Sequence record: OR699282.2
Source: Escherichia phage BAU.Micro_ELP-22
Direction: 5' to 3' (one strand)
Length of the DNA stretch: 64,000 nucleotides
Within the stretch, counting starts at the first letter, position 1. Each line of letters opens with the position of its first letter. This document shows positions 1 through 64,000 of this stretch, in pieces. Under the pieces are notes generated by a model. The model was not told where the DNA came from. It saw nothing but the letters and a program-made list of their open reading frames with translations, and ran no database searches. A program made the position numbers and the translations under genes.

Positions 1-1
1 T

Positions 2-1792
2 GCAATTCTTACTGCTACACGTGAAATTATTGATAACAGCTTAGATGAATTTAAAAAAGCTGGAACCAAAGAACCTGTTTTGAAAGTTGATTTCAATGAA
101 GAAGAACTATCATTTGAAATTAGTGACAATGGACGTGGTATTCCAATTGATTATGTTCCAGAGTATCAGAAAAACTTGTGTACTATGGTAATGACTGAAA
201 CAAAAACAGGCCGTAACTTTGACGATTCAAAACGTGATGAAACGATTGGTCAGAATGGTTTAGGTGGTTCTGTTGCAATGATTGTCAGTTCTAAGGCAGA
301 GTTAGAAATTCATCGCCAAGGTCGTCCGTATAAAACACAAAGTAGTAATGATGGTTATGATGGGTTTTATAAGTTCAATCAGAAGTTTGAGGAAGGAACT
401 ATTATGTTCCCTGAGCTTCATGTACACGAACCTACTATTAGAAAGGTACAAACCGATAAAACTGGAACAACAATTCGTTTTACTTTGAGTAAAGAAGTTT
501 TTCCAAACAGAAAACTACCAACCGAATTACTTTATAGTATTCTTAAAGAAATGGCAGCAGCTAACCCAACTTATAAAATCTTTCTGAACGGGAAACGTAT
601 TGCTATTAAAGGAAACACTGAAAAAGCACTCTTCAATGCATCTAAATTAATGCAGTTGAATGTTAAAGATGATTCATTCAATTTTAACAGTACTTTTTAT
701 ATTGTTCCTAATGCAGTAGCTGGCATGAACACGAATTTCCATATGCATGGGTTGGTTAACAATGCTCCTGCATTTGATGGTGGTACACATCTTGATACAT
801 TCAAGAAATTCTTCTCACTCGGTGTAGGAACTGCACTAGAGAAAGAATCTAAGAAACGTAGGATGAAACCAAATCGTTCTGATATTGAAGAAGGTTTGTT
901 GATTTATAATGTCACAACTATGAAAGCACCTTCATTCAACTCACAGATTAAATCTAAACTAACTAATGAAAACGTAATCCGTCCAATTCAACAAGCTATG
1001 AGTACCGAATGGTTTGATGAATTAGTTAAGAAGAACAAAGAATGGGTTGATGAAATCTTCGAACGTTGTGCTGCCCGTACAAATAAGAAAGATGCAGAAG
1101 AAGATCGTCGCCTAGCAAAGAAACTTCTAAAAGGTAAAGTTGCAAAACTATTGGATAGTACTGGAACAGACCGTTCACAGTGTATTCTATTGATTGCAGA
1201 AGGTGACTCTGCAATTTCCAACATGGCTAGTGCTCGTATACCAAGTATTCATGGTATTCTACCATTGCGTGGGAAAATTATGAACGTCAGTGGTACTGAG
1301 AAAACCAAAGAATTAATGGATTCAATGGCTTTACATGATATAATGGCTAGTATCAACTTAGTTCCAGGTGTCAAAGCAGAACGTTCTGAACTAAACTATG
1401 GTAAGCTTTACATCTGTGCTGATGAAGATGAAGATGGGAAGAACATTGGTGCTCTAGTGTGTAACTTCTTATTTAAATTCTGGCCTGAATTGTTTCAAGA
1501 CCCAGAAAATCCATTTGTGTATGTATTCAAAACACCATTTATCATTCTTGAGAAAGGTAAAGAATCAAAATACTACTATGGTCATAATGTGCATGAATAT
1601 AACCCAGATGATTGGAAAGGCTGGAAAGCAACGCGTGCAAAAGGTTTAGGAACTTTAGAAAAAGCAAACTTCCGTGATGCATTCACTAATAGTGTTGCAG
1701 TAGCGATCACCGATGATGGCCGTCTTGGTGAAACTCTTGATTTGATTTTCAACAAGAAACGTGCAGATGATCGTAAGAACTGGATGGAATAA
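2..1792 (+). CDS. 39: DNA topoisomerase II large subunit, 5' partial (GyrB-like ATPase plus Toprim in one ORF)
   Basis: Frame open to window edge; GHKL N-box-like EIIDNSLDE at N-terminus, GQNGLGGS, Toprim ILLIAEGDSA and acidic ADEDEDG motif. Confidence 0.85.
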   Translation, partial: AILTATREIIDNSLDEFKKAGTKEPVLKVDFNEEELSFEISDNGRGIPIDYVPEYQKNLCTMVMTETKTGRNFDDSKRDETIGQNGLGGSVAMIVSSKAELEIHRQGRPYKTQSSNDGYDGFYKFNQKFEEGTIMFPELHVHEPTIRKVQTDKTGTTIRFTLSKEVFPNRKLPTELLYSILKEMAAANPTYKIFLNGKRIAIKGNTEKALFNASKLMQLNVKDDSFNFNSTFYIVPNAVAGMNTNFHMHGLVNNAPAFDGGTHLDTFKKFFSLGVGTALEKESKKRRMKPNRSDIEEGLLIYNVTTMKAPSFNSQIKSKLTNENVIRPIQQAMSTEWFDELVKKNKEWVDEIFERCAARTNKKDAEEDRRLAKKLLKGKVAKLLDSTGTDRSQCILLIAEGDSAISNMASARIPSIHGILPLRGKIMNVSGTEKTKELMDSMALHDIMASINLVPGVKAERSELNYGKLYICADEDEDGKNIGALVCNFLFKFWPELFQDPENPFVYVFKTPFIILEKGKESKYYYGHNVHEYNPDDWKGWKATRAKGLGTLEKANFRDAFTNSVAVAITDDGRLGETLDLIFNKKRADDRKNWME

Positions 1793-1842
1793 TATAGACT
1801 AATGGGGAACATGGTGTTCCCCTTTTACCAAGAGACAATGGA

Positions 1843-3255
1843 ATGGCTAAAAGTAAAAAAACAGAAAATCATAATATCGATAACCAAACACTAACTCTAC
1901 TAGATTATAACAGTTCTGATTATGTGAATACAACATCACTAGAATATTCGATGTATACACTAGACCGTGCTATTCCTGGAATTGATGGTCTAAAGAGTTC
2001 ACAACGTAAAGCAATCTTCACATTATCTAAAATTAGTGGGGAAATTAAAACAGTATCATGTGCTGGAAAAATGATTAGTGATGGTATCTATCTTCATGGG
2101 GACACGTCAGCATCAGGAACACTTCAAAATCTAGCATCTCCAGTAGCTAACAACTATCCTCTTATTGGAAAACGTGGTGGTTTTGGTACACAAGTAAACA
2201 GTACACCAGCATCTGCTCGTTACACTTATGTTAAAAAGAATAAGAGTACTGAGATGCTTGTTTTGCGTGATGCTGATATTATACCAATGAAAGAGAACTA
2301 TGACGGGACAACATATGAACCTGTTCATTTCTTGCCTATTATTCCATTATCATTGTTTGGTAATGATAGTATGTCAGTTGGTTATAAGAGTACAATTCTA
2401 CCACATAAAATTGAAGATATTATTGATAATTGTATTCGTGCTATTGATAAAAAACCACTAAAAGAAATGACCCCATATTATGTTTCATGTGGTGCAAGTG
2501 ATGTTGTGACTAAGCTTGATGAAAATAAGTATGAATTCTATGGTAAAGCTGAGGTTATTGATGCAAGCACTGTTAAAGTAACAGGCTTACCACCTAATTA
2601 CAGTATTGAGAAATTCATCGAAAAACTAATCAAAATGAGTGATGATGGTGAGATTCGTGATTATGACAATGATAGTACTGATGTAATTGATATTACCATT
2701 AAACTTCCACGTGGAACGTCAGCTAAATGGACAGAGATGGATGTTATTGAGTATTTTGGCATTAACAAAAAAATGACTCAACATTTAACTGTTCTAGGTG
2801 AAAATGGCAAAGTGAAAGTTTACGATACGACAATGGATTTGATTAAAGACTTCGTTGATTTCCGTTTCAAATATTACATCAAGCGTTATGAAAAGAAACT
2901 TGATGATTGTGCTGCTGAAGTTCGTTATAAAATTCTAATTAAAGAATGTTTCGATAATGATATGATTGCTAAGGTAAAAGGATTTGCAAACCGTGCTGAA
3001 ATGGTTGAATTCGTTAAATCGTTAAATACCGAAATTGAAGCAACGGAAGAGAATATTCAAAGCATTGTAAACTTCCCTTCATATCGCTGGACGCAAGATA
3101 ATTATCAATCAGTACTACAAGATATTCAAGATAATCTTGATTTGATGGATAAGTACAATGAACTGTTATCTAATCATGACTTAATTTGGGACATTTATAA
3201 ATCTGAACTAAAAGAACTAAGAAAGATTGACTTTACTCCTAAATCAGACAATTGA
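1843..3255 (+). CDS. 52: DNA topoisomerase II medium subunit (GyrA-like breakage-reunion domain)
   Basis: 470 aa; LDRAIPGIDGLKSSQRKAIF resembles GyrA/ParC N-terminal signature; immediately follows the large subunit. Confidence 0.8.
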   Translation: MAKSKKTENHNIDNQTLTLLDYNSSDYVNTTSLEYSMYTLDRAIPGIDGLKSSQRKAIFTLSKISGEIKTVSCAGKMISDGIYLHGDTSASGTLQNLASPVANNYPLIGKRGGFGTQVNSTPASARYTYVKKNKSTEMLVLRDADIIPMKENYDGTTYEPVHFLPIIPLSLFGNDSMSVGYKSTILPHKIEDIIDNCIRAIDKKPLKEMTPYYVSCGASDVVTKLDENKYEFYGKAEVIDASTVKVTGLPPNYSIEKFIEKLIKMSDDGEIRDYDNDSTDVIDITIKLPRGTSAKWTEMDVIEYFGINKKMTQHLTVLGENGKVKVYDTTMDLIKDFVDFRFKYYIKRYEKKLDDCAAEVRYKILIKECFDNDMIAKVKGFANRAEMVEFVKSLNTEIEATEENIQSIVNFPSYRWTQDNYQSVLQDIQDNLDLMDKYNELLSNHDLIWDIYKSELKELRKIDFTPKSDN

Positions 3256-3265
3256 TATATTTAAT

Positions 3266-3290
3266 GGAAGACCTTATGGGTCTTCCTTGT
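3266..3290 (+). terminator. Candidate hairpin terminator after topoisomerase genes
   Basis: ggaagacc-ttat-gggtcttcc stem-loop followed by T-rich tract. Confidence 0.45.
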
Positions 3291-3296
3291 CCTTTA

Positions 3297-3304
3297 TATA
3301 AATA
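3297..3304 (+). promoter_or_regulatory. T4-type late promoter box TATAAATA
   Basis: Exact TATAAATA about 40 nt upstream of the 3343 start. Confidence 0.5.
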
Positions 3305-3342
3305 ATCTATAGATAATGGCAGCTTGGCTATGGAGAATTATA

Positions 3343-5736
3343 ATGACAACTTTTACCCCACGATGGGATATAAAAGCCGATGCTCGATATATACAAGAAG
3401 GACAAGACATTCTTGTGCGTTTGAGTATCAATAAAGAAAGCACAACGGATGATAGCTATGTATTAAATGAAGATGAATACTTAGAAATGATTCTTAACAT
3501 ACAATGCTTGGATAGTTCAGGTGCTGTATTTGATCCAGAACCACATTATACTTTTTATGTTGGTAATGACGAAAATACTTTTGTTCCTATTTCAGATGGT
3601 ACAACTGGTAATAAATTAGTAAATGGTAAGCATAAGTGTAAAATCAGCAAAAATGAATTTAACTTATCTGCAAGTACTAATAGTGAAGATGTTTATTTTA
3701 TAAAAATTCATTGTAAAAATGATGGAACCTATAATAATACAGAAATTATAAATTTTTATTTACAAGCAGTAAATGTTATGTATTTTGGAAATATTTCACC
3801 AAGTGGTGTTCTAGGATTAACTGATACATCAATAACATATGATAGTCAAGAAGTTTGGGTTACACCCGGAGTTGAGATTGGTGATGACAAAAAGCTTTAT
3901 TGTATTGGTGATGTTGAGTATGGCTCCAACAGTACATTGTTCGTTCAAGGATTTGGAAGAAGACGACCTTTCATTTTGGGTACTGACATGACTACTGATA
4001 TTACACCTCGTGTCTTTTTTCCAGCATATCGTTTGATTGACATGGATATTTCTGAAGTTCCAGATAAACATATTACGAATGATTTCGCAGTATTCAAGCC
4101 AGCACAATCAACATGGCCTATTTCTGGTATAAACAAAGAAGTAAAAGTTAATATTCAAAATAGAAATGGTAATTTAATTGACACTGGAATGGTGTTCAAC
4201 CCAAATGGGCAATTATTGCAAACATTTTTATATGACTCAGATGCTTGTGATGCATATTTTAAAGTTGAGATTGTTGATATATTAAGTACATACACCGAAG
4301 AAAGTGAAAGGTTTGCTATCAATCAACGATATAAAGCATATCAAATGTGGGTTTGTCCTGAAGACATAGATACTATATATTCTATTTCAGAAAAACCACT
4401 ACCCAATCATTTATATCAATTAAAAGATAATGTTGTGTATCCATACGTAATTAGTGGTGAATACGATAATGGAACAATTAAGCCCGTTTATGATAGTAGT
4501 GATTGGATTGATTTAGGATATTATGACTCTACTCTTGGTGATAATATCATTGGTATGCAAAAAATGTTCAGGGTTTTGATAAACGCAGAAGAAGGTAATA
4601 ATATAAACTTTATTACTGATAGTGATTTAGGAACCATACATGTTGGTGAATATTTTGGAGACAGTATATATCCTAAAATTGAAACTGATAGCTCTAATCA
4701 AGTTTCGTATGTTTTAGATGGTGGTGATGACATTAGAAAGTATGGGATAGATTTGACACCAGATGGATATCTTGTAGGAACTGCATATGCCAAAAGTATT
4801 GATTTTAGTGAAAATGATGATATTAAATTATCGTTTTATGTTAAAGCATTTAGTACTGAAGGTGGTGAAGCAAGAAAAATATTTAACCTTAAGATTGTAA
4901 GAGGATTCGGACAGAATTATTTGAGTGCACATGTATTACCTTCGGTTGCATTTGAGAGAGAATGGTTTAAATGTATAAGTACTTCATCATTCACTAATCA
5001 ACTATTTTTCCGACAATCTGACAATAGATATGGTCTTCAGAAAATACCGAAGATGTTATTGAAAGAAAACTTCCTAAGTCAAACGTATCCATATACTAAC
5101 CTTTCTGATATCAAGAAAGTATTGAGAAATAGTATAATTAACCCAAATGGAACTACTATTCCAAATGGAAAATTTAAAATGGTAATGGGTAATTATAAAA
5201 TAATATCAGCACTTGACAATCAAGGTAACTTACAATATGATCTATTATATAGAGAGGTTTTACCTGAAGGTTCTTTAGTATCTGTATCCAAAAATCCACG
5301 TCAATATACTCAAATCGACAACGGTCAGCTTGGTGAATTATTTGGTTTACGACAAAATATTTTTCAGGCTATTGGTGAAGACACAACCAACTTAGTAAAA
5401 GACCCAACCGATTTACAAAATCGTGGTCTATACGTTGATGCGATACCAAGTATCAGTGATGAAATGCTTGATACGGTTCCAAGATTTATGAATCACCCAT
5501 ACATTGAAGATGGTATACAGAAAAAATTCATGCCTATCATTCCAGTTGCATATTGTCAACCAGGCAAAGGTGAAGCATTTTTCAACACTTTACTTCAGAA
5601 CAATGAACATGGTACAATGGTAGGTGTAGAGTTCGAAATCACATCGGTTGAATTCGGATACTTTTCGCATGAATCAGTGAATTATGTTTCAGATACATTT
5701 TTGATTACATTGCAAAACAATAACATAGGAGGTTAA
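3343..5736 (+). CDS. Large hypothetical protein (797 aa), possibly late/structural
   Basis: Long ORF; GGAG RBS before ATG 3343 (track start 3316 lacks RBS); late promoter box upstream; no motif recognised. Confidence 0.6.
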   Translation: MTTFTPRWDIKADARYIQEGQDILVRLSINKESTTDDSYVLNEDEYLEMILNIQCLDSSGAVFDPEPHYTFYVGNDENTFVPISDGTTGNKLVNGKHKCKISKNEFNLSASTNSEDVYFIKIHCKNDGTYNNTEIINFYLQAVNVMYFGNISPSGVLGLTDTSITYDSQEVWVTPGVEIGDDKKLYCIGDVEYGSNSTLFVQGFGRRRPFILGTDMTTDITPRVFFPAYRLIDMDISEVPDKHITNDFAVFKPAQSTWPISGINKEVKVNIQNRNGNLIDTGMVFNPNGQLLQTFLYDSDACDAYFKVEIVDILSTYTEESERFAINQRYKAYQMWVCPEDIDTIYSISEKPLPNHLYQLKDNVVYPYVISGEYDNGTIKPVYDSSDWIDLGYYDSTLGDNIIGMQKMFRVLINAEEGNNINFITDSDLGTIHVGEYFGDSIYPKIETDSSNQVSYVLDGGDDIRKYGIDLTPDGYLVGTAYAKSIDFSENDDIKLSFYVKAFSTEGGEARKIFNLKIVRGFGQNYLSAHVLPSVAFEREWFKCISTSSFTNQLFFRQSDNRYGLQKIPKMLLKENFLSQTYPYTNLSDIKKVLRNSIINPNGTTIPNGKFKMVMGNYKIISALDNQGNLQYDLLYREVLPEGSLVSVSKNPRQYTQIDNGQLGELFGLRQNIFQAIGEDTTNLVKDPTDLQNRGLYVDAIPSISDEMLDTVPRFMNHPYIEDGIQKKFMPIIPVAYCQPGKGEAFFNTLLQNNEHGTMVGVEFEITSVEFGYFSHESVNYVSDTFLITLQNNNIGG

Positions 5737-5737
5737 T

Positions 5738-6527: not shown

Positions 6528-6545
6528 AAAAACATGTGATATAAT
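6516..6545 (+). promoter_or_regulatory. Sigma70-type early promoter
   Basis: TTGAAA, 18 nt spacer, GATATAAT extended -10. Confidence 0.5.
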
Positions 6546-24245: not shown

Positions 24246-25106
24246 ATGAAACCTATCCGAATACTTTCTCTTTTTAATGGAATGAGTGTGGGATATATGG
24301 CATTGCAAGATGCGGGTATCCCAGTTGAAAAATATTATTCATCCGAAATTGATAAGTACGCAATAGCTGAATCTCAATCTAACTTTCCTGATATTATCCA
24401 ATTGGGTGATATAACTAAGTGGAGAGAATGGGATATTGAGTGGGACAAAATAGATTTATTAATGGGTGGTTTCCCATGCCAAGCCTGGTCAGTTGCAGGT
24501 AAACAGGGTGGTTTAAATGATATACGTGGGCAGTTATTTTTAGTAATGGTTGAAATTTTTGATCATATCAAAAGTCTCAATCCTAACTTGAAATTTCTGT
24601 TTGAAAATGTTAAAATGAAGGAAGATTTCAAAGAATACATTAATAGTATTTTAGGAATCACGCCAGTACTGATAAACTCCCAGCATTATACGCCTCACTT
24701 CAGGCAGAGATATTACTGGTACAGTACTGATAAGCTTTTTATACCACCTGCATTATCCAATGCACCTAAACTTCAAGATATTATTGAAGATGGTTGGTAC
24801 ACTGACAGAACCGCTTCGTACTGTATAGATGCTAACTATTTTAAAGGTGGTGATTGTAACCAGTACTTTAATAAATCCAGACGACAATTGGTGTTTCGTG
24901 ACCCAGTGATCAGTCGTCAATATCTATTAGAGAATGGCAAAAGAAATATTGACTATAGACACTTAAGTGTAGTAGAATGTTGTAAATTACAGGGTGTTCC
25001 TGAAGATTTCTTTAAAGTGTCTAGTAAGACACAAGCATACAAAATGCTTGGGAATGGATGGACTATGCCAGTTATATCACATTTACTAAGAGAGATATTC
25101 TTTTGA
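24246..25106 (+). CDS. DNA cytosine-5 methyltransferase
   Basis: 286 aa; motif I LSLFNGMSVG, motif IV GFPCQAWS, motif VI LFENV, C-terminal LGNGWTMPV. Confidence 0.8.
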   Translation: MKPIRILSLFNGMSVGYMALQDAGIPVEKYYSSEIDKYAIAESQSNFPDIIQLGDITKWREWDIEWDKIDLLMGGFPCQAWSVAGKQGGLNDIRGQLFLVMVEIFDHIKSLNPNLKFLFENVKMKEDFKEYINSILGITPVLINSQHYTPHFRQRYYWYSTDKLFIPPALSNAPKLQDIIEDGWYTDRTASYCIDANYFKGGDCNQYFNKSRRQLVFRDPVISRQYLLENGKRNIDYRHLSVVECCKLQGVPEDFFKVSSKTQAYKMLGNGWTMPVISHLLREIFF

Positions 25107-31746: not shown

Positions 31747-31761
31747 ACGTTACTTTGTAAA

Positions 31762-31789
31762 TACCCAGTACTTGACTGGGTATTTTTTT
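31762..31789 (+). terminator. Rho-independent terminator
   Basis: taccca/tgggta stem, 9-nt loop containing TTGAC, followed by TTTTTTT. Confidence 0.65.
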
Positions 31790-31800
31790 AAGGAAATAAA

Positions 31801-35624: not shown

Positions 35625-36033
<409 letters not shown>

Positions 36034-36037
<4 letters not shown>

Positions 36038-36061
36038 CTAAATAATTCAGTACTGTATAAT
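36034..36061 (+). promoter_or_regulatory. Early promoter, conserved-spacer family
   Basis: TTGACT-aaataattcagtactg-TATAAT; drives tRNA-Gly. Confidence 0.7.
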
Positions 36062-36063
36062 GC

Positions 36064-36147
<84 letters not shown>

Positions 36148-36167
36148 TTAATAATTCAAAGGTGAAT

Positions 36168-36344
36168 ATGATGCTATCACACAAAACAGCAACTGTTGAA
36201 AATATTGAATCATTATCTGCACAAGAATTGGTTGACAAAATTAAAGAAGTATGTGATAATAATGGCATTGATATGAATGATACATTTATTAGTGTAGGTT
36301 ATGGTGATTTAGAAATTCAATCTAAAACACTATATTATACTTGA
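36168..36344 (+). CDS. Small hypothetical protein
   Basis: 58 aa from ATG with AAGGTGA RBS. Confidence 0.45.
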   Translation: MMLSHKTATVENIESLSAQELVDKIKEVCDNNGIDMNDTFISVGYGDLEIQSKTLYYT

Positions 36345-36362
36345 CTAAATAGTTCAGTACCG
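36341..36362 (+). repeat. Degenerate copy of conserved-spacer promoter (has -35 and spacer, lacks -10)
   Basis: TTGACTaaatagttcagtacc followed by GAAGGAG rather than TATAAT. Confidence 0.5.
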
Positions 36363-36400
36363 AAGGAGATTAATATGTTTAAAGATGAACGTCCAGATTT

Positions 36401-36441
<41 letters not shown>

Positions 36442-38522: not shown

Positions 38523-39071
<549 letters not shown>

Positions 39072-43775: not shown

Positions 43776-44117
43776 ATGAACTTAAGTTCAACAATTCAGT
43801 ACTTGAGCAGTAACTTCGAGAAAATTATTTCTCGCGGTGGGATGATTGTACACCCAGAAACAGAGGAAATGTACATCATTGGATTTGATAAAAATTCTTA
43901 TGATCAAGTACTTGTAATTTCCAAGTTAGAAAGTTATAATGAAGTTGTTCAGTTTTGCTGTACCGAATTTGGTATCTATATTAAAGACGCTGAAACTAAT
44001 ACAATTTCGCATTATTTTTACCACACACTGATGGGTACTAAAGACTTCGGCTTGAAGTTCGATGATTTAGTACAATGTCACTATATGTTTAAAACCTTCC
44101 CAGCTAGTGGGCATTAA
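43776..44117 (+). CDS. Hypothetical protein
   Basis: 113 aa ORF. Confidence 0.5.
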   Translation: MNLSSTIQYLSSNFEKIISRGGMIVHPETEEMYIIGFDKNSYDQVLVISKLESYNEVVQFCCTEFGIYIKDAETNTISHYFYHTLMGTKDFGLKFDDLVQCHYMFKTFPASGH

Positions 44118-44130
44118 GGAGTATATCAAT

Positions 44131-44919
44131 ATGAGCAACATTTTCTTCAAAACTATTTCTTTCAAAAAAGCATCTTACTCCTACGCCTACGTTGATGGTA
44201 AAGTGCTTAATATTGTACTGGATGGTGTTGACGTACCAGTTGAATTTAAAACACATGAAGAAGCAGTTGAAGGTGCTAAAGAATTGAATTCAATTCTTAA
44301 TGGTGAAGTAAGTCAAAAACAACATGTAAAATCTGATTTAGATGTACTTTTGGAAAAAATCAAAACTGGTGAAGTATTAGAAATTTTAGACAACTGTAAT
44401 GAAAAACTTCGTAATGTAGTTAATAATGTTCGTGACCAGATTCAAGAAAAAGCACTAGAGCAAGCATTCAAACATGTATCCAAGAATGCTGAATCTCGTA
44501 TTGACGGTATGGTTAAAAATCTTGATGATGTACTATCCCATCTCTTTACTAAAGAATACGAACAAGAAGTTGAAGAAGAACCAGTAAAAGAAACTAAAAA
44601 AGAAAAACGTAGCTTTGGCTCAGGTGATGATGTGTTTGGTTTTACGAATGTCAGAACAAGTGCAGATGAACCAAAAGAAATTAGTGAGATGCTCATTGGT
44701 GACATGACAACTAAGCAGCTTCGTAATGAAATTGACAAGTTTGTAACTAGTTGTATCAAATCAGAACGTGCACAAAGTATGTTTAAAAGCATTAGTGAGA
44801 ACTTTGGTCCAGAAGCAACTGAGCAGGCACTAACTGCATTTAAAGAATTGATTTATAATGTAGCCATTAGCAATCCAGATAAAACACTTGAAGAAGTTCT
44901 ACGTGACAATTTCAAATAA
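44131..44919 (+). CDS. Hypothetical acidic protein
   Basis: 262 aa from ATG with GGAG RBS. Confidence 0.55.
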   Translation: MSNIFFKTISFKKASYSYAYVDGKVLNIVLDGVDVPVEFKTHEEAVEGAKELNSILNGEVSQKQHVKSDLDVLLEKIKTGEVLEILDNCNEKLRNVVNNVRDQIQEKALEQAFKHVSKNAESRIDGMVKNLDDVLSHLFTKEYEQEVEEEPVKETKKEKRSFGSGDDVFGFTNVRTSADEPKEISEMLIGDMTTKQLRNEIDKFVTSCIKSERAQSMFKSISENFGPEATEQALTAFKELIYNVAISNPDKTLEEVLRDNFK

Positions 44920-44931
44920 TTAGATAAAATT

Positions 44932-44961
44932 AAAGCCACTACAATGTAGTGGCTTTTTTTA
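44932..44961. terminator. Bidirectional terminator between convergent genes
   Basis: agccactac/gtagtggct hairpin flanked by A-run upstream and T7 downstream. Confidence 0.7.
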
Positions 44962-46116
44962 TTATGCGTTGTAACCAACTATTACGACTGAGCAGTCAAG
45001 CGGTTCTACTACTTTAAGAATTACATTATCATCTTCATCCACTTGTATTTCACTATGAACTACATGATTGTCTGAAGAATATAATTGAACTTGTGGTAGT
45101 GCTTTACCATGTTCAGTTACTGGAACTGAGATAGAGTACATAGAGTCTTCACCGAGAACCCACTCACTTAAAGTATATTCTTTATGGAAAGGAGTAGTAT
45201 GCAGTGTTTTTCCGATTATACTCAAAGAAACAGGTAAATTATCAGTTTGATACACAGTAATATTACCTTCTGCGTCTACAGAAAGATCTACACCAACTTG
45301 ATATAAGTCACCACTGTATGCTTGAAGTGCTAAGTACTGTCCACGATCATGAACATCAAATGGAACAACCGCAGAAAATACACCTTCCGAAACAGGTTCA
45401 AATTGGGATAGAAGAACTGATGTAACAAAATCAATATCCTCACCACTTTCAAGAACATCAAATTCCACCACTTTAGTGTTATAATATGGAGAAGTGAGTG
45501 TAGCAGTACCTTTCCCTGATTGTGTGATAACATCAACTGGAATTGTAAATGCATCATTAACAAATTGGGTAGTAAAGTATTCTGTCCCGTCTGGTAATAC
45601 GATTGTTATTACCATACCGTTAGTATCAATTTCTGAACCAGTGTTGAATAATTTACCACTAATTGAGTCATTACCAACAAATACTGGTGAAATGAGAATA
45701 TTATCTATATCACGATCTATAATACCACATTCAGGTGTATACATATGATACAAGGTTTGTGAACTACCTAAAATTGTTTTATGTAGCATGAATTTATATA
45801 CAAATCCAGTATCAGTTTCTTGTGGCTCTTCAGAATATCCACGAACAAAGAAACAATTTTTATTAATTTCACTTAATAGTTGGTCATTAGTTTTATTGTA
45901 ATTTAATAGATAACCTTTATTATCTTTAGTTGTTATTTGTACTTTACGATATATTATATTAGTTCTTGGATCAACTAAATCATATAATCTATGGCTTCTT
46001 TGGCGATAGATTCTAATATTTTTTAGTCTAGTTCCATCATTGAGGATTGCACCATCAACAACATAACCACATTCACCAAACTTATAGCGTCCAGCCGCAG
46101 CAATTGACCTTGACAT
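44962..46116 (-). CDS. Hypothetical protein (only minus-strand gene in window)
   Basis: 384 aa; GGAGGG RBS on minus strand upstream of start; no motif recognised. Confidence 0.6.
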   Translation of the reverse strand: MSRSIAAAGRYKFGECGYVVDGAILNDGTRLKNIRIYRQRSHRLYDLVDPRTNIIYRKVQITTKDNKGYLLNYNKTNDQLLSEINKNCFFVRGYSEEPQETDTGFVYKFMLHKTILGSSQTLYHMYTPECGIIDRDIDNILISPVFVGNDSISGKLFNTGSEIDTNGMVITIVLPDGTEYFTTQFVNDAFTIPVDVITQSGKGTATLTSPYYNTKVVEFDVLESGEDIDFVTSVLLSQFEPVSEGVFSAVVPFDVHDRGQYLALQAYSGDLYQVGVDLSVDAEGNITVYQTDNLPVSLSIIGKTLHTTPFHKEYTLSEWVLGEDSMYSISVPVTEHGKALPQVQLYSSDNHVVHSEIQVDEDDNVILKVVEPLDCSVVIVGYNA

Positions 46117-51944: not shown

Positions 51945-52430
51945 CTTGTACAATTCTGTTGGCATGATATTCATGTACCTGATCCACTCGAAAACGTAGA
52001 GGGCAGTTGAGCAGTCCGACAGTGCGAACAGCAAAAGAAACCCGTTAGATGTGGGCATAGTTTGAACCCCTCACGGCAATGCGGCTGTATAAAGAACCAC
52101 GTTAGGATAGCTGGTGGTTCCTTGATAGACATATAAGGATAACACCTTACGAATTATCTAAGGGAGAGTTATCGAATTTTGTACAGGAAAGTTGCGTCCA
52201 AAATTTGAGTACTCACATTAAGTATTTGATTGCATAGATACTTAATGAAGATACACTATGTTTAAAAGTGTAGACCGTCATATGAAACTGAAGTAGAGAG
52301 AAACAGGATGACCCGCTTTCGCACTCGTTATGAGTAATCTTCAATGCAATAGCTCTGATACCATCAGCGTCAAATTTCCCTCCTTGTGGGGGGAAGAAAA
52401 ATCCCTTCCTCAAATCCCGTCAATATTAAA
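51945..52430 (+). ncRNA. ORF-free, partly GC-enriched block; candidate structured RNA
   Basis: No + strand ORF of 60 aa or more; first ~150 nt markedly more GC-rich than genome; ends with 8-bp hairpin ttccctcc/ggggggaa. Confidence 0.3.
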
Positions 52431-54260: not shown

Positions 54261-54288
54261 TTGACATAAGATATCAGTACTGTATAAT
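54261..54288 (+). promoter_or_regulatory. Early promoter, conserved-spacer family
   Basis: TTGACA-taagatatcagtactg-TATAAT. Confidence 0.7.
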
Positions 54289-56881: not shown

Positions 56882-56884
56882 TAA

Positions 56885-58006: not shown

Positions 58007-58239
58007 TACTAAGTTTTGTTGTTGCACTATTGTTTATGTTCTATCCTACACTAGTGGCATTAGCCACTAGGCGAACGATGGTAGATCTCACTACTGTATT
58101 CTTGCTAAACGTGGCATTAGTACTGGTGTCTATTATCATTCCAGTGAGCTTTACAGTTATTGATATTATTTCGGTATTACTCTTCGTGTTAAGTTATCTT
58201 ATGCTTATTGAAGAAACAAATGTTGACAAACGTTCGTAG
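57997..58239 (+). CDS. Small membrane protein
   Basis: 80 aa; two or three hydrophobic helices. Confidence 0.5.
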   Translation: MYLVLSFVVALLFMFYPTLVALATRRTMVDLTTVFLLNVALVLVSIIIPVSFTVIDIISVLLFVLSYLMLIEETNVDKRS

Positions 58240-58250
58240 TACTGTATAAT
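58223..58250 (+). promoter_or_regulatory. Early promoter, conserved-spacer family
   Basis: TTGACA-aacgttcgtagtactg-TATAAT, overlaps 3' end of previous gene. Confidence 0.65.
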
Positions 58251-58297
58251 GGTTCCTGTAGTCTGAAACTTAACACTTAAACTTGAGGTAAAAAAAT

Positions 58298-58624: not shown

Positions 58625-58650
58625 CAGTGAAAATATCTCTATAGTATTAA

Positions 58651-58683
58651 ATACTTCTGTACATATATATAGTACAGAAGTAT
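58651..58683 (+). terminator. Long perfect hairpin, probable terminator
   Basis: atacttctgtac - atatatata - gtacagaagtat (12-bp stem) followed by TTCT. Confidence 0.5.
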
Positions 58684-58702
58684 TTCTCGTTAGAGGTTTG
58701 TT

Positions 58703-59062: not shown

Positions 59063-59072
59063 GACTTAAAAA

Positions 59073-59450
59073 ATGGTAAACACTATTTTACTTTTGTTGT
59101 TGAATATTCCAATTATTCTGTCTTTTTTAATTTCTATTTTTATGGCAGGATATTGTTTAGTTGCAGTAATTCATTTCATTTTAACAAACAAATATGTCCT
59201 AATTTCTAAGCTTGATTCTATTTTTGCTTGCGATTCGATTGCTTATAACTTGTGGTTAATTTGTTCTTGCATTATGGGAGTAACTTTCCTTCTGTATGTA
59301 TTTGATGTCCTTGACCAAAAGTTCGTATACATCAGTACTGGATTGGCTCTTTATCCTGCTACGTGGTACTTGATTTACGTTGGTGATATATGGTATAGTA
59401 CTTATAAAGAATATCAGTACAAGAAATCACTTAACGTTGGAGGAAAATAA
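59073..59450 (+). CDS. Polytopic membrane protein
   Basis: 125 aa; about 4 hydrophobic helices. Confidence 0.5.
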   Translation: MVNTILLLLLNIPIILSFLISIFMAGYCLVAVIHFILTNKYVLISKLDSIFACDSIAYNLWLICSCIMGVTFLLYVFDVLDQKFVYISTGLALYPATWYLIYVGDIWYSTYKEYQYKKSLNVGGK

Positions 59451-59452
59451 TC

Positions 59453-59803
59453 ATGAAAATTATTTTATTTTTTGTATGTATGTTAATGTGTGGATTGTCA
59501 TATGCTGAACCATTGGAAGGTTTAGTTTGTACAGATGGTAATATTAAACATATCTATCAAGGTGATAGTGACAATCGAGATATTGTATATATTGATGGAC
59601 AATCATATACGTTTGTTAAAGAGCATACAGTAGGCGACATTAGCTTCACTGAGTTTTCTAACGACACAGACCCTAACTTCTTAGCGTTTATTGAAGTAGA
59701 TGTATATGAAGATAGTAATGGCACACAATATGCTAAATTAGTTATGATGCGTCGTGGTGCTAAAGAAACTAGTTTTGGTGGCTTGTGTAAATATAAGGAT
59801 TGA
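59453..59803 (+). CDS. Secreted protein (paralogue of 58703 gene)
   Basis: 116 aa; signal peptide SYA-EP; IVYIDGQSYTF. Confidence 0.55.
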   Translation: MKIILFFVCMLMCGLSYAEPLEGLVCTDGNIKHIYQGDSDNRDIVYIDGQSYTFVKEHTVGDISFTEFSNDTDPNFLAFIEVDVYEDSNGTQYAKLVMMRRGAKETSFGGLCKYKD

Positions 59804-59807
59804 TATT

Positions 59808-59999
59808 ATGTTGATTTATCAAAGTGATAATATTCGTGTTATGCAGCATCCCTACTTACAAATCTTTGATGTGCAGCAGTATATGGAAGGTGATGACCCA
59901 AGAACCTATGGTCGTAAGTATGATTACTTCACTGTAAAGCAGTGTAAAAATATTAACGAAGTACGACAATTAGTTCAAGAACTTCAAAACAAAGGTTGA
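59808..59999 (+). CDS. Hypothetical protein
   Basis: 63 aa from ATG with AAGGA RBS. Confidence 0.45.
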   Translation: MLIYQSDNIRVMQHPYLQIFDVQQYMEGDDPRTYGRKYDYFTVKQCKNINEVRQLVQELQNKG

Positions 60000-60025
60000 C
60001 TTCGGTCAGCCTTTTTTGTTATAAT
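59994..60025 (+). terminator. Composite terminator-promoter element, copy 1
   Basis: ggttgac-ttcg-gtcagcc hairpin plus T6; the hairpin contains TTGACT and is followed 18 nt later by TATAAT. Confidence 0.65.
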
Positions 60026-60053
60026 TCTCTTAATAAATTAGAGGATTTTAATT

Positions 60054-60494
60054 ATGTATGTATATCGTTTTGAACTTAAATTTAGTTACATTGAACCTAA
60101 CTTAGATCCTGCACGAACTGTAGGTCCGTTTGCACGGTATTCAACTAGATACAGTACTAAAAATGGATTTGACCGTTTGTGCATGACCACACCTTCGCAA
60201 TTCCAACCAGAACCAACTGAAGATGGAATCTATTCAATCAAACGTGGCTGGGTATTTGGCTGTCAAAGTTTGAAAGATTTGTTCAGATTCTTCACTATGG
60301 ACTTGGGTAAATTGCATCGTGCTGGGTTTGCTATATCTGTATATGAAGTTCCAGACCACCATGTAGACATTGGTCGTAATCAGGTTCAGTACTATTGCGG
60401 TAGTGCTAAATTAGTTCGTATCATGTCAGTTAAGGAAGCAAAGGATGAGTTCCGACAAAGTAAAAGAGAAACACATGAGGTAATATATGGATAA
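60054..60494 (+). CDS. Hypothetical protein
   Basis: 146 aa; GAGGA RBS. Confidence 0.55.
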   Translation: MYVYRFELKFSYIEPNLDPARTVGPFARYSTRYSTKNGFDRLCMTTPSQFQPEPTEDGIYSIKRGWVFGCQSLKDLFRFFTMDLGKLHRAGFAISVYEVPDHHVDIGRNQVQYYCGSAKLVRIMSVKEAKDEFRQSKRETHEVIYG

Positions 60495-60831
60495 AACTCA
60501 AATAGAATTAAAGAAATTTGTTTCATTCTATTTTCCTGATGACCCACGTAATTCACAAAAAGATATTGAATATTATAATATCCTATCTAAACAGTTAATG
60601 AGAAAGTTTCAACAGTGTTTAACTATATTCAATACAGATGGAAGACGTAGATACCGAATCGTTTCAATGAATGATGAAAACGCAAATTTCTTTGATTACG
60701 ATGTAGTTTTTAGAGCATATAATGATGATCGTATAAAATTAAATTATGATCAAATTATACTTGACCTGAATGTTATATGTGTTATAATCACTCACGTAGC
60801 CGAACTTAATGGTTTTAAAGAATGGTATTGA
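60487..60831 (+). CDS. Hypothetical protein
   Basis: 114 aa; overlap coupling. Confidence 0.5.
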   Translation: MDKTQIELKKFVSFYFPDDPRNSQKDIEYYNILSKQLMRKFQQCLTIFNTDGRRRYRIVSMNDENANFFDYDVVFRAYNDDRIKLNYDQIILDLNVICVIITHVAELNGFKEWY

Positions 60832-60845
60832 ATAGAGGATAACAT

Positions 60846-61112
60846 ATGAAGCTTAAATTACAATATAATGGATTTACTTTACGTAATGATACTGAATTTA
60901 TTAATCGTTCTCCTGGTGCTGAACTGTTTTTACGAGAGATGAACATTCCTTTCATCATTACTACAGTGGGCGACCGTGAAGTTCTACAATATGCAGAGCA
61001 TCCGATTATTGATGTTCCTTGGTACTCTGAGCATATGTACATGGATATGGCACGTCGCTACAACTGTAAGTTCGTAGTTGAAGGTGATAAAATTACAGTC
61101 GAATTTAAATAA
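60846..61112 (+). CDS. Hypothetical protein
   Basis: 88 aa; GAGGA RBS. Confidence 0.5.
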   Translation: MKLKLQYNGFTLRNDTEFINRSPGAELFLREMNIPFIITTVGDREVLQYAEHPIIDVPWYSEHMYMDMARRYNCKFVVEGDKITVEFK

Positions 61113-61124
61113 GGTAAATTAAAA

Positions 61125-61418
61125 ATGATCAGTACTTCAGTTAATGAAAGCATCGTCGCTGACGTAGAAATGGTTAAAGAATGTGCAGATGAAACTCTTC
61201 GTGATATGTACATTAATGATTTAATTACTGAATACGGTAGTCGTGGTGTACACGAATTTATTCGTTTAAGTGGAGAGTTGATGAAAAATCGAATTCGTAT
61301 GAAGCTTAACGTACATCCAAAAGCATGGGCATTTACATTAAAATACGCAGAAGATATTGTGAATTTGCGTCGAACTGAAGTATATGAACGTTTGCACAAT
61401 GGTATGTTAGATAAATGA
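61125..61418 (+). CDS. Hypothetical protein
   Basis: 97 aa ORF. Confidence 0.5.
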   Translation: MISTSVNESIVADVEMVKECADETLRDMYINDLITEYGSRGVHEFIRLSGELMKNRIRMKLNVHPKAWAFTLKYAEDIVNLRRTEVYERLHNGMLDK

Positions 61419-61427
61419 TTGTAAAAA

Positions 61428-61457
61428 AGGAATTCTTAAATGAATTCCTTTTTGTTT
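61428..61457 (+). terminator. Rho-independent terminator
   Basis: aggaattc/gaattcct hairpin followed by TTTTT. Confidence 0.7.
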
Positions 61458-61470
61458 ATAAGGTATAGTA

Positions 61471-61692
61471 ATGAAATATATAGTACTTGTACTGATATTA
61501 TTCAGTACTGTTGTAAGTGCTAAACAAAAAGAATATGTTAAATGTATAAATTATGAAGAGAAATATGTTGAAACATATAAAAAAAGTATAATTAAAAACG
61601 TTTCGATTACTAACAGAGCAACAATCATTGTACTTAAAAATGGGTTAATTATGCTATATAAACCACACGTTAAATGTGAAATTATTAATTGA
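61471..61692 (+). CDS. Small secreted protein
   Basis: 73 aa; signal peptide ending VVSA-KQ. Confidence 0.5.
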   Translation: MKYIVLVLILFSTVVSAKQKEYVKCINYEEKYVETYKKSIIKNVSITNRATIIVLKNGLIMLYKPHVKCEIIN

Positions 61693-61699
61693 GGAAATT

Positions 61700-62272
61700 A
61701 TGAATCGTAAAGGTCGTTTTAAAGTATCAAAAAAGAACAAAAGTTCTAGGTTTAAACCTATTGTTTTAACAGTTAAATCTAACAAAGATTTAACTGCACT
61801 TAGTAAAAAGATAATTTCATCTAAGATTGAAGTATCATACGTAAATTCATTAAAATATATGAATGTCAAACCACTGGACCAACTCATTTCACTTATATTT
61901 GAACGTAATGATTTTGAGATATCAGTAGATGATTATAGAGCCTATAATGCTGGTTTCATTAATGTTACTTGTAATAAAAAACTAACTGAGTTGGAAAATT
62001 TGTCATGTATAATAAATCTAGATAAAGGTGTTGTGAAGTACCATTTTGTACATTTCACTAATATCAATAATGGAATGGGTGTACAATCCAGACCTATAGT
62101 GCCTACGTGTGATGTTACTAAATTAGCAAAGCTCAATGATGAAGAATATTTTCAAGAAAGCATTGTAACTGAGCATTTAGATGATATAATAGCTACTTAC
62201 AAAGAATGCATATGGGTGTTGAATGCTATAAAACCTAAATTGTGTTTAATGAATATTGTTCGTGATTTATGA
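61700..62272 (+). CDS. C-terminal FFQ-x-S motif family member (variant)
   Basis: 190 aa from ATG with GAGGAAA RBS; DEEYFQESIVTEH. Confidence 0.5.
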   Translation: MNRKGRFKVSKKNKSSRFKPIVLTVKSNKDLTALSKKIISSKIEVSYVNSLKYMNVKPLDQLISLIFERNDFEISVDDYRAYNAGFINVTCNKKLTELENLSCIINLDKGVVKYHFVHFTNINNGMGVQSRPIVPTCDVTKLAKLNDEEYFQESIVTEHLDDIIATYKECIWVLNAIKPKLCLMNIVRDL

Positions 62273-62285
62273 ATGGGGAATCGTA

Positions 62286-62729
62286 ATGAGTTGGGTAAAT
62301 GTTAATAGTATTGAACTTAACGAACAAGATATTTTTGCATTTGTAAATTTAACTAATAACACAGTACTAAAAGGGCGTTTGTTCAGTGCTAGTGATGGGT
62401 ACAAATGGATCTCTTTGATGGATGATAGTGGTGTGATTTATAATGTAATGCAATTACCCCAATGGGTATATAGTAACACTGCTGACGATGTTCTTACCGC
62501 AGTTATGCGTGAGTTTGAAAAACTCCCAGGTGGTGATATCAAAAACAAAGTTTTTAATGCAGAACGTAAAAATTATACAGCACAGCAATTGGAATCCCTT
62601 GCCATTGCTGCTTATCAAGCTGCTATTAAGAAGCCAGAGTGCGTTATTCTTAAGTATGTACCAGACTTAAAACTTACGTTGGAAGACATGGATGCATTCA
62701 TTTTTACATCTGAACTTGATCAGTACTAA
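62286..62729 (+). CDS. Hypothetical protein
   Basis: 147 aa from ATG with GGGGAA RBS. Confidence 0.5.
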   Translation: MSWVNVNSIELNEQDIFAFVNLTNNTVLKGRLFSASDGYKWISLMDDSGVIYNVMQLPQWVYSNTADDVLTAVMREFEKLPGGDIKNKVFNAERKNYTAQQLESLAIAAYQAAIKKPECVILKYVPDLKLTLEDMDAFIFTSELDQY

Positions 62730-62738
62730 TTTAACTTT

Positions 62739-62766
62739 GGGACAACCATTCTTATTATGATATAAT
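62739..62766 (+). promoter_or_regulatory. Early-type promoter
   Basis: GGGACA -35-like, 16 nt spacer, GATATAAT. Confidence 0.5.
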
Positions 62767-62800
62767 GTTTTATGTCATTCGATATAAATGACAACGGAAC

Positions 62801-62808
62801 TATAAATA
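62801..62808 (+). promoter_or_regulatory. T4-type late promoter box TATAAATA
   Basis: Exact TATAAATA 37 nt upstream of the 62845 start. Confidence 0.5.
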
Positions 62809-62844
62809 TTATAGTAAAATTTATCTCTTATAGGAGTTATAAAA

Positions 62845-63228
62845 ATGGTTGATAAATGGAATAAGAAAGATCCATCACATGATGTTGATATTTCTGGTCT
62901 AGACAATGCACATAAGCACAAGTATCTAGATTCACTAGGTCTTCTAAAACCAGACCAAAGTCTTGCACATGATCGTCCATCCCGTGAAAAAGCATTTAGC
63001 CTAGAATCACTAGGTCATGAGCTTAATCGTGTGTTTGAGGATCACCCAATCTATGTACGTGATATTATCGAGAAACTTAAAGTAACTCCTAAAGAGCACT
63101 TTAAAGCAACTGTACACTCTGCATTCCGTGCATTACATGAATCTCTAAAGAAAACTCACAATCTTCGTAAAATTCATGATGAAATCGTGAATGCTATCGA
63201 AAGTGAAAAACATAAGTTCAAGAAGTAA
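62845..63228 (+). CDS. Hypothetical protein, probably late-expressed
   Basis: 127 aa; TAGGAG RBS; contains KYLDSLGLLKPDQ motif shared with the 63475 ORF. Confidence 0.55.
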   Translation: MVDKWNKKDPSHDVDISGLDNAHKHKYLDSLGLLKPDQSLAHDRPSREKAFSLESLGHELNRVFEDHPIYVRDIIEKLKVTPKEHFKATVHSAFRALHESLKKTHNLRKIHDEIVNAIESEKHKFKK

Positions 63229-63234
63229 TAAAAA

Positions 63235-63260
63235 GGGTTGACTAAGGTCAGCCCTTTGTT
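63235..63260 (+). terminator. Composite terminator-promoter element, copy 2
   Basis: gggttgac-taag-gtcagccc hairpin plus T-rich tail; contains TTGACT. Confidence 0.6.
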
Positions 63261-63296
63261 GTATCATAACTTCTCAATATAACTGAGGTATCATAT

Positions 63297-63410
63297 ATGC
63301 AAGGTTTAAAATTTGTAGTTGCTGCACTCATCGCCGCAGTACTGGTTGGTGGTGTATTCTATGTAGTGGATCAAAAAGTAAATCCACCTGCACAAGAACA
63401 ATCTACGTAA
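63297..63410 (+). CDS. Small membrane peptide
   Basis: 37 aa; GAGG RBS; hydrophobic core VVAALIAAVLVGGVFYVV. Confidence 0.4.
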   Translation: MQGLKFVVAALIAAVLVGGVFYVVDQKVNPPAQEQST

Positions 63411-63418
63411 CAAAATAA

Positions 63419-63440
63419 GGTTGACTTCGGTCAGCCTTTT
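63419..63440 (+). terminator. Composite terminator-promoter element, copy 3
   Basis: ggttgac-ttcg-gtcagcc hairpin plus TTTT; near-identical to copy 1. Confidence 0.65.
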
Positions 63441-63448
63441 CTTTATAC

Positions 63449-63456
63449 TATAAATA
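63449..63456 (+). promoter_or_regulatory. T4-type late promoter box TATAAATA
   Basis: Exact TATAAATA 19 nt upstream of the 63475 start. Confidence 0.5.
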
Positions 63457-63474
63457 TAGACATAGAGAAAAAAA

Positions 63475-64000
63475 ATGAAATCTATGGAGAGAAATCAAAT
63501 GCCAAGTAATTTTACTGATAAAAATGGTGGTAACATGGCTGGTCACTCTGATAAATGGAGTGAACGCAACCGCCGTCCAAATAGTTATCAAGCAGGTCAA
63601 GGTTCACGTGGGTCACGTAATCAAGGAACTGGTCTAGCTGGTAAAGCAAACGCAGAAGCAGGTGAAGTTAAGAGTACTGAGAACATGACTGAGCTAGAAA
63701 AGCTACGTTATGTTAATTCATTGGGACTTCTTAATGCTACACAAAAACAACGTCTAGCTGATATGGAACGTGAAGAAAAAGAAAAATCTGCTCCTGCTAA
63801 AGAAGAACCAAAACAAGAAGCACCAAAGGCGGTTAACCCTGTCAAAGAACTGTCGGATAAGTTAGGTAAGATTTTTGCTAATAAACCACAACTTATCCAA
63901 GGTATTGTGAAAGAATTGCAATCTGTACCTAAAGAAGAATTAAAAGTCAAAGCACAAGCTGTACTTGATGCAATGAGTGGAAATACCAGTACTGAACCAA
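63475..64000 (+). CDS. Hypothetical protein, 3' partial, probably late-expressed
   Basis: Open frame from ATG 63475 to window end (175+ codons, no stop); absent from ORF track because no stop in window; RYVNSLGLLNATQ motif. Confidence 0.55.
   Translation, partial: MKSMERNQMPSNFTDKNGGNMAGHSDKWSERNRRPNSYQAGQGSRGSRNQGTGLAGKANAEAGEVKSTENMTELEKLRYVNSLGLLNATQKQRLADMEREEKEKSAPAKEEPKQEAPKAVNPVKELSDKLGKIFANKPQLIQGIVKELQSVPKEELKVKAQAVLDAMSGNTSTEP

Follow-up and report, generated by a model that had tools for sequence, protein, structure and literature searches.

The closest described counterpart of the signal treated here is HIP1 (GCGATCGC) of cyanobacteria, the most over-represented palindrome of its length, which is found in coding as well as non-coding DNA, has spread by substitution, stands under purifying selection with a quasi-periodic spacing and is linked to methylases, its function still being debated. 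Other well-known iterated signals, the DNA uptake sequence (DUS) of Neisseria, the uptake signal sequence (USS) of Haemophilus and Chi of E. coli, are non-palindromic and orientation-dependent, their readers being ComP, the uptake machinery and RecBCD, respectively, while the dense GATC sites of E. coli (Dam with SeqA and MutH) serve strand discrimination and sequestration. Investigating a stretch of 64,000 bp (33.2% GC) from Escherichia phage BAU.Micro_ELP-22 (record OR699282.2), referred to at its full length as the window, we followed up the impression, gained by eye in a sequence-only reading, that the palindromic hexamer AGTACT recurs far more often than expected. AGTACT is a highly iterated palindrome (HIP) in the descriptive sense: it is the top palindrome, occurs in all reading frames and in non-coding DNA, originates by substitution and is conserved.

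The excess is borne out by exact counting. The window contains 152 AGTACT copies, against Markov expectations of 16.4 (order 1), 29.8 (order 2) and 54.8 (order 3), and none of 100 dinucleotide-preserving shuffles reached this number, their mean being 16.8 and their maximum 26. Under orders 1 to 3, AGTACT ranks first among the 4096 hexamers of the window, with a ratio of observed to expected counts (O/E) nowhere near 1, and the words at ranks 2 and 3 (CAGTAC and GTACTG) are both AGTACT sub-words. An order-4 model expects 115.7 copies, a high value because the pentamers of AGTACT itself feed the model. The copies are distributed as follows:

1-64000, no strand (palindrome): 152 copies of AGTACT, 6-17 per 4 kb, mean spacing 419 bp, largest gap 1437 bp

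Of the extended form CAGTACTG the window has 29 copies (shuffle mean 0.59), which make up 19% of the sites. A C precedes the hexamer in 41% of the copies and a G follows it in 46%, these preferences being mirror-symmetric and independent on the two sides; the share of CAGTACTG equals the product of the two flank preferences, and the earlier description 'often as CAGTACTG' therefore holds for about one site in five, strongly enriched as the octamer is.

The signal resides in the DNA rather than in the encoded proteins. On a simple gene map of the window (131 open reading frames (ORFs), 129 of them on the + strand, 89% coding), AGTACT occurs 64, 26 and 43 times in frames 0, 1 and 2, and 19 further copies are intergenic. 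Shuffling synonymous codons in such a way that all protein sequences and overall codon usage stay unchanged leads to expectations of 16.0, 4.3 and 11.1 in the three frames, each of which is thus enriched 4-6x, and to 31.4 +/- 4.8 (maximum 45) in-gene copies against the 133 observed. Both the occurrence in several frames and the conclusion that frame independence argues against codon bias, as put forward in the sequence-only reading, stand. The density is 2.75/kb in non-coding and 2.33/kb in coding DNA of the window; within genes the position distribution is flat, and the genes free of sites are mostly short. Information in the flanks amounts to at most 0.37 bit at +/-1 and at most 0.04 bit further out, so that AGTACT is not part of a longer repeat.

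The window belongs to Asteriusvirus (PBECO4/121Q-type), jumbo myoviruses of ~350 kb within the Rak2-like group; its identity is 99% to Escherichia phage vB_EcoM_E9.1 and 98-99% to PBECO4, 121Q, phAPEC6 and SP27. Its contents include the genes for topoisomerase II, clamp loader and a C5 DNA methyltransferase, besides a tRNA cluster and ~100 small genes without a known function. Relatives at graded distances were compared at 25-50 kb per genome, with order-2 Markov expectations. AGTACT is the top hexamer in all 14 sampled Rak2-like genomes (the window and 13 further clade loci, including E9.1), the hosts of which include Escherichia, Klebsiella, Salmonella, Cronobacter, Pectobacterium, Yersinia and Xanthomonas. 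Counts and expectations, each at rank 1, were:

121Q: 84 against 19.9
Ec-M-J: 100 against 23.4
JNE01: 96 against 25.2
RaK2: 112 against 22.7
Salmonella PHA46: 98 against 23.9
EJP2: 160 against 34.5
Pectobacterium CBB: 118 against 28.0
Cronobacter GAP32: 117 against 25.6
Yersinia fHe-Yen9-03: 173 against 24.8
Xanthomonas XaC1: 159 against 36.9
Asteriusvirus Sharanji, two other genome regions: 92 against 16.6 and 100 against 19.0

Pooled over 597 kb of clade sequence, 1561 copies stand against 326 expected, and with AGTACT masked from the background model, 1037 copies were observed in a 9-locus subset against 105-182 expected. Over-representation in the clade is ~5-10x, and the density of 2.0-4.3/kb compares with 0-0.3/kb in outgroup phages and 0.06/kb (3 copies) in a 50-kb sample of E. 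coli K-12, the clade phages being ~40x denser than the latter. No excess was present in Pseudomonas PA5oct (3 against 14), the syntenic Vibrio phage 2.275.O (13 against 14), Sinorhizobium Phosso (1 against 6), T4 (12 against 10), Xanthomonas XacN1 (0 against 6) and Agrobacterium Atu_ph07 (1 against 3). AGTACT abundance is inherited with the phage lineage and not with the host: a Xanthomonas phage has it, yet T4, which likewise grows on E. coli, has not, which points to a phage-borne determinant and away from a host factor. In addition, the sites are densest (3.6-4.3/kb) in arrays of small early genes that look paralogous and have no known function (Sharanji 322000-350079, Yen9-03, XaC1) and sparsest (1.5-2/kb) in long conserved replication and structural genes.

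Individual sites are conserved well above the level of matched control hexamers. In protein-guided alignments of the first 30 kb, with frame-matched hexamers of the same base composition as controls, the window sites were retained in the relatives as follows:

121Q: 53 of 53 sites, against 0.84 for controls (P=9e-5)
Ec-M-J: 35 of 53 sites, against 0.34 for controls (P=1e-6)
JNE01: 27 of 47 sites, against 0.19 for controls (P=9e-9)
RaK2: 13 of 38 sites, against 0.12 for controls (P=3e-4)
EJP2: 7 of 31 sites, against 0.07 for controls
GAP32: 6 of 28 sites, against 0.07 for controls

Retention in PHA46 and CBB was not distinguishable from that of control hexamers; the excess is seen at 72-97% identity and falls to the control level at ~62%, the density persisting. 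None of the 853 differences from 121Q lies inside an AGTACT motif, against 10.4 expected. The most diverged genomes of the clade show an equal or higher density, so that single sites turn over, slowly, and it is the density that persists. Differences at orthologous positions are point substitutions; gains and losses are spread about evenly over the six positions of the hexamer, amino-acid changes being as frequent as in control hexamers. Within the window the sites are spaced more evenly than at random (coefficient of variation (CV) 0.81, P=0.003), and its largest gap of 1437 bp compares with a simulated mean of 2334 bp (P=0.002); the CV lies below 1 in 9 of 10 loci, individually significant in the Asteriusvirus loci only, and pair distances in the 10 loci revealed no periodicity. 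Individual sites are under purifying selection and yet turn over, and what is maintained is their density and a mildly even spread. Concerning the earlier proposal of a functional DNA-level site, conservation above controls, the missing substitutions towards 121Q, the first rank throughout the clade despite turnover and the over-even spacing all speak in its favour. Among protein binding, modification and recombination, sequence alone does not separate; both annotated methyltransferases fit poorly and no binding protein was identified.

The hexamer itself is strictly delimited. Its 18 one-mismatch variants show O/E values of 1.05-1.97 against 6-10 for AGTACT, and this sharp fall-off, taken together with the nearly uninformative flanks, would fit an enzyme of the restriction-modification (R-M) type rather than the degenerate sites of a transcription factor. 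Across subclades the hexamer is invariant while the flank preference shifts: symmetrised 5' C is found at 41-51% in Asteriusvirus, RaK2 and EJP2, and at 25-30% in the other clade members, with A at 33-41%. A further observation on the flanks is that in the enterobacterial phages G at -1 (C at +1) is ~2x rarer (0.07-0.11) than in the background (0.16-0.19), a depletion which the Xanthomonas phage XaC1 does not show (0.15). Xanthomonas is not known to have SlmA, the nucleoid-occlusion factor whose site has GAGTACTC as its core; the depletion may reflect avoidance of SlmA binding or mere coincidence.

A second property accompanies the excess throughout. GCGC is absent from the window (0 against a shuffle mean of 27.2) and from the 597 kb of pooled clade sequence (0 against ~325 expected), and it is present in all six outgroup phages, in five of them near expectation and in XacN1 at 48 against 105. 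AGTACT excess and complete GCGC loss co-occur perfectly, 14 genomes showing both and six showing neither; this co-occurrence, like the clade-wide scope of the AGTACT trait, was absent from the sequence-only reading. Complete loss over hosts as different as E. coli and Xanthomonas points to a GCGC-specific nuclease encoded by the phage rather more than to restriction by the host. The purge extends further: most G/C-rich palindromes have been lost, 27 of the 64 palindromic hexamers are at zero copies in the window, and among observed/expected counts in the pool are CTGCAG 0/102, CAGCTG 0/91, GCATGC 0/81, TGGCCA 1/57, GGATCC 2/55, GGTACC 5/111 and CCATGG 9/111, whereas outgroup phages have only 3-7 zero-count palindromes per 40-50 kb. 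The tetramer GATC stands at ~0.57x of its expectation in the clade. In genomes from which restriction-type palindromes are purged so stringently, several hundred copies of AGTACT would not be expected unless they are protected or highly beneficial. The outgroup phage XacN1 displays the same pattern of a purged genome plus one iterated palindrome with another blunt-cutter site, GATATC, which is its rank-1 hexamer in two regions (19 against 3-4 at 100001-125000 and 37 against 7-10 at 200001-250000), 27-32 palindromic hexamers being at zero despite 50% GC. The XacN1 products annotated as 'methyltransferases', ORF198 and ORF202, are of the Hen1 type and of a small-molecule type, unrelated to the Dam family, and were discarded as candidates.

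A minority of the sites has a special placement. The window contains 25 sigma70-like promoters of the form TTGACn-N16-18-TAnAAT on the + strand against one on the - strand, and five of the 25 take the form TTGACw-N9-AGTACTG-(A)TATAAT (at 35625, 36034, 36413, 54261 and 58223), in agreement with the previously noticed occurrence in promoter spacers:

35625-35652, + strand: sigma70-type promoter TTGACTAAATAGTTCAGTACTGTATAAT, AGTACT at 35640-35645 in the spacer, abutting the -10 hexamer
36034-36061, + strand: sigma70-type promoter TTGACTAAATAATTCAGTACTGTATAAT, AGTACT at 36049-36054 in the spacer
36408-36441, + strand: promoter TTGACTAAATAGTTCAGTACTGATATAAT, AGTACT at 36428-36433 in the spacer and a second one at 36408-36413 directly abutting the -35 hexamer
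54261-54288, + strand: sigma70-type promoter TTGACATAAGATATCAGTACTGTATAAT, AGTACT at 54276-54281 in the spacer
58223-58250, + strand: sigma70-type promoter TTGACAAACGTTCGTAGTACTGTATAAT, AGTACT at 58238-58243 in the spacer

The first three are near-identical cassettes, TTGACTAAATA[G/A]TTCAGTACTG[A]TATAAT, lying within 800 bp (35625-36441) in the tRNA/early region. As AGTACT lies immediately upstream of the -10 hexamer in these promoters, a protein that binds or modifies it would presumably influence RNA polymerase. A general sigma70 promoter element AGTACT is not, the fixed placement being found at 5 of 152 sites only and 133 sites lying inside genes. All genes downstream of the five promoters belong to PHROGs of unknown function, and no autoregulated binder was recognised among them. 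As a separate observation, a sigma-70-family protein is encoded in the window (Pfam Sigma70_r2, r3 and r4 matched, among 116 ORFs scanned), additional to the T4 gp55-like late sigma reported in the literature for the Rak2-like group.

The association with longer palindromes, also part of the sequence-only reading, applies to a few sites only. Extension of the dyad is near chance (45 of 152 copies extend by at least 1 bp, the per-bp chance being 0.28), ~140 remaining sites are plain hexamers, and two intergenic palindromes stand out, 121 bp apart, the first of them in the tRNA region:

38761-38774, no strand: 14-bp perfect palindrome ATTCAGTACTGAAT, centred on AGTACT
38881-38896, no strand: 16-bp perfect palindrome TATTCAGTACTGAATA, centred on AGTACT

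In addition, a terminator-like hairpin at 31757-31790 (AATACCCAGT-ACTTG-ACTGGGTATT, followed by a T-run) contains an AGTACT that reaches from the upper end of the 5' stem arm into the first part of the loop.

How can a restriction-type palindrome be so abundant in genomes that avoid most others? We tentatively favour, at somewhat less than even confidence, the reading that AGTACT is a strict 6-bp dyad-symmetric recognition site maintained by selection for a phage-encoded protein with a specificity of R-M grade, and hence a highly iterated palindrome specific to the Rak2-like lineage. A modifying enzyme or a dimeric binding protein encoded by the phage would recognise AGTACT along the whole genome, and the dense sites could mark the DNA positively as phage 'self' or, alternatively, offer loading or anchoring points to a genome-wide process such as packaging, replication or repair, or the organisation of the genome; it is the ~40-fold contrast with host DNA which suggests either of these roles. 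AGTACT is the recognition sequence of ScaI (AGT^ACT; PMC8919816), and the sites are probably protected chemically, for instance by methylation, since restriction-type palindromes are otherwise purged and >800 unprotected targets of the ScaI type would hardly be tolerable. Where AGTACT lies just upstream of the -10 hexamer in early promoters, the same reader might modulate early transcription. A bolder extension, which we consider rather improbable, is a two-way sequence-encoded 'self', in which a dense and even AGTACT mark (~1 per 250-500 bp) would be read by a phage protein while GCGC would have been erased as the target of a phage nuclease destroying host DNA, with GATATC as the counterpart of the mark in XacN1.

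Some caution should be exercised, as several points weigh against the recognition-site reading. No cognate protein for AGTACT was found in Pfam screens and methyltransferase checks. The bulk screens covered 256 proteins, ~43% of an Asteriusvirus genome (for the second protein set, 25 of 50 matched families were listed), and no ScaI-like nuclease, third DNA methyltransferase or evident site-specific binder appeared among the matches listed. The PF05869 'Dam' adenine methyltransferase of the clade (173 aa; 121Q gp417, Sharanji gp542) has as its closest characterised homologue a GATC-specific enzyme, M.Phi93DAM of lactococcal phage phi93, which shares 51.7% identity with the Yersinia-phage orthologue and for which methylation of G6mATC was established by SMRT (single-molecule real-time) sequencing and DpnI/DpnII digestion. 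The other annotated enzyme is encoded in the window:

24246-25106, + strand: C-5 cytosine DNA methyltransferase gene (PF00145), considered as AGTACT writer and judged unlikely

It is found at least in Asteriusvirus, RaK2, GAP32 and Hallingskeid, and the RaK2 paper reports 5-methylcytosine (m5C) in CpG context; AGTACT contains no CpG, and the enzyme is thus a poor fit. DNA of fEgEco12 was cut as predicted by ten enzymes, which speaks against bulk hypermodification. The evenness of spacing is modest and non-significant in several genera, and a neutral drive, discussed below, would mimic purifying selection in alignments, the two being formally inseparable here.

Further candidates were set aside in the same search. 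The RaK2 report of CpG context led to the rejection of the window C5 enzyme as writer; its JNE01 orthologue (sampled locus 43943-45832) carries an intein with Hint and LAGLIDADG homing endonuclease domains in a 629-aa ORF. WNN14829, called a 'methyltransferase' in the Sharanji paper, has no methyltransferase domain. Hypermutability of m5C at position 5 of AGTACT was likewise discarded, there being no C-to-T excess (O/E 1.20 for AGTATT and 1.10 for AATACT). In the SD-15_S21 assembly, nanopore-type consensus errors were not clustered at AGTACT, a proxy which is uninformative on methylation. No ScaI digestion or methylome is reported for this clade in the searchable literature.

The alternative that survives best is epigenetic: AGTACT would be the target of an orphan phage methyltransferase, with the methylated sites themselves being functional, and the candidate would be the PF05869 'Dam' enzyme, diverged from GATC. 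We regard this as possible, if doubtful. The enzyme is conserved in the clade, and a syntenic orthologue beside a cytidylyltransferase gene is present in every AGTACT-rich genome checked, XaC1, CBB and GAP32 included. A strictly defined palindromic hexamer is the kind of target usual for a type II methyltransferase, the purge of other restriction-type palindromes makes protection of AGTACT probable, the GATC deficit fits poorly with a protective GATC methylase, and HIP1 is tied to methylases as well (the DmtA/DmtC parallel). On the other hand, the nearest characterised homologue methylates GATC, 173 aa would leave little room for the recognition of 6 bp, methylation explains the tolerance of AGTACT and not its enrichment, and the missing C-to-T signature at position 5 argues against m5C. 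As AGTACT writer, the PF05869 enzyme is accordingly kept only as a weakened rival candidate, its co-occurrence being set against the GATC specificity of its homologue.

It is unlikely, in our view, that AGTACT abundance is the functionless outcome of a neutral drive, in which biased repair or gene conversion, a ratchet of the very short patch (VSP) or MutH type, turns near-cognates into AGTACT. Such a ratchet has already been proposed for HIP1, and turnover at constant density, as well as the mimicry mentioned above, is compatible with it. However, one-mismatch neighbours are not depleted (18 of 18 with O/E of at least 1.05, AGTATT and AATACT among them), changes are spread over all six positions and are non-synonymous as often as in controls, unlike mismatch-specific repair, and neither the fixed placement in early promoters nor the over-even spacing would be expected. 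The enrichment also lies far above the effect of E. coli VSP repair on CCWGG. A VSP-like repair drive was rejected on the lack of neighbour depletion and of position bias.

Accumulation of sites for a host protein, in order to titrate or recruit a factor such as SlmA, has very little probability left. The 12-bp SlmA consensus GTGAGTACTCAC has an AGTACT core (PMC3020112), and the clade hosts are mostly Enterobacterales. Yet the SlmA flank, G at -1 and C at +1, is the least used one, GAGTACTC occurs 0-3 times per locus against 6-48 times for CAGTACTG, matches to the 12-mer with at most 2 mismatches number 0-4 per locus, and a Xanthomonas phage has the trait, which T4 and the syntenic Vibrio phage lack; with the wrong flanks and a trait that follows the phage lineage, SlmA or another host factor is largely refuted. 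The intergenic 12-mer TTGAGTACTCAC at 52205-52216 lies one mismatch from the consensus, which is about the chance level among 152 sites.

An origin of AGTACT as a side product of coding or composition, be it through a bias in codons or dipeptides, dispersed repeats or the avoidance of other palindromes, is negligible as an explanation: although most sites are in frame 0 (Ser-Thr, AGT ACT) and the genome is AT-rich with many other palindromes purged, codon and dipeptide bias is ruled out by the synonymous-codon shuffle, the enrichment of all frames and the equal or higher non-coding density, a dispersed repeat family by flanks almost without information, and AGTACT as a sink for purged palindromes by the expectations of those at most 2 changes away, which sum to ~430 in 597 kb (some of them being inflated by the GTAC excess) against an AGTACT excess of >1200.

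We found no published description of AGTACT enrichment in this clade in the searchable literature, subscription-journal papers such as that on the GAP32 genome being outside its scope. An excess of 5-10x held by selection throughout a clade of ~350-kb phages implies a sequence-specific protein acting genome-wide, in a group of phages in which most genes have no known function. It carries the HIP1 problem, long unsolved in cyanobacteria, over to viruses, and a fast-growing, genetically tractable E. coli system, for which nature provides relatives at several degrees of divergence, could open this problem to tests. The GCGC absence and the GATATC sites of XacN1 suggest a more general rule for the oligonucleotide content of jumbo phages. 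A two-way mark, if true, would represent a new class of sequence-encoded, modification-independent viral self/non-self discrimination. On the practical side, AGTACT is a strong metagenome signature of the clade, and any host with a ScaI-type system should either show complete resistance or be evaded completely, a point of relevance to host range in phage therapy.

Compared with HIP1, AGTACT shares the first rank among words of its length, the occurrence in coding and non-coding DNA, the spread by substitution, the selection and the bond to a lineage, and its spacing tends towards evenness, significantly so in the Asteriusvirus loci only. It differs in being a hexamer instead of an octamer, in residing in virulent jumbo phage genomes rather than in cellular chromosomes, and in its co-occurrence with total GCGC loss and wholesale palindrome avoidance; the role in natural transformation proposed for HIP1 has no obvious phage counterpart. 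As with DUS, USS and Chi, the signal is far denser in self DNA (~40x the E. coli sample), scattered through genes and a matter of density over position. Unlike them it is dyad-symmetric, and, being its own reverse complement, can have no orientation bias; no reader was found among the matches listed in the 256-protein Pfam screens. With ScaI-type R-M targets AGTACT has in common the strict 6-bp palindrome and the sharp one-mismatch fall-off, but such targets are normally avoided by phages, and mostly so in this clade, whereas AGTACT is enriched 5-10x. If a GCGC nuclease and an AGTACT mark were indeed combined, the logic of self and non-self would be that of T4 hydroxymethylcytosine with Alc, EndoII and EndoIV and of the chlorovirus R-M enzymes, which degrade host DNA, phage DNA being set apart from that of the host by its chemistry or its sequence; in those systems the difference is made by modified bases, be it every cytosine or defined methylated sites, while here the distinction would lie in the primary sequence.

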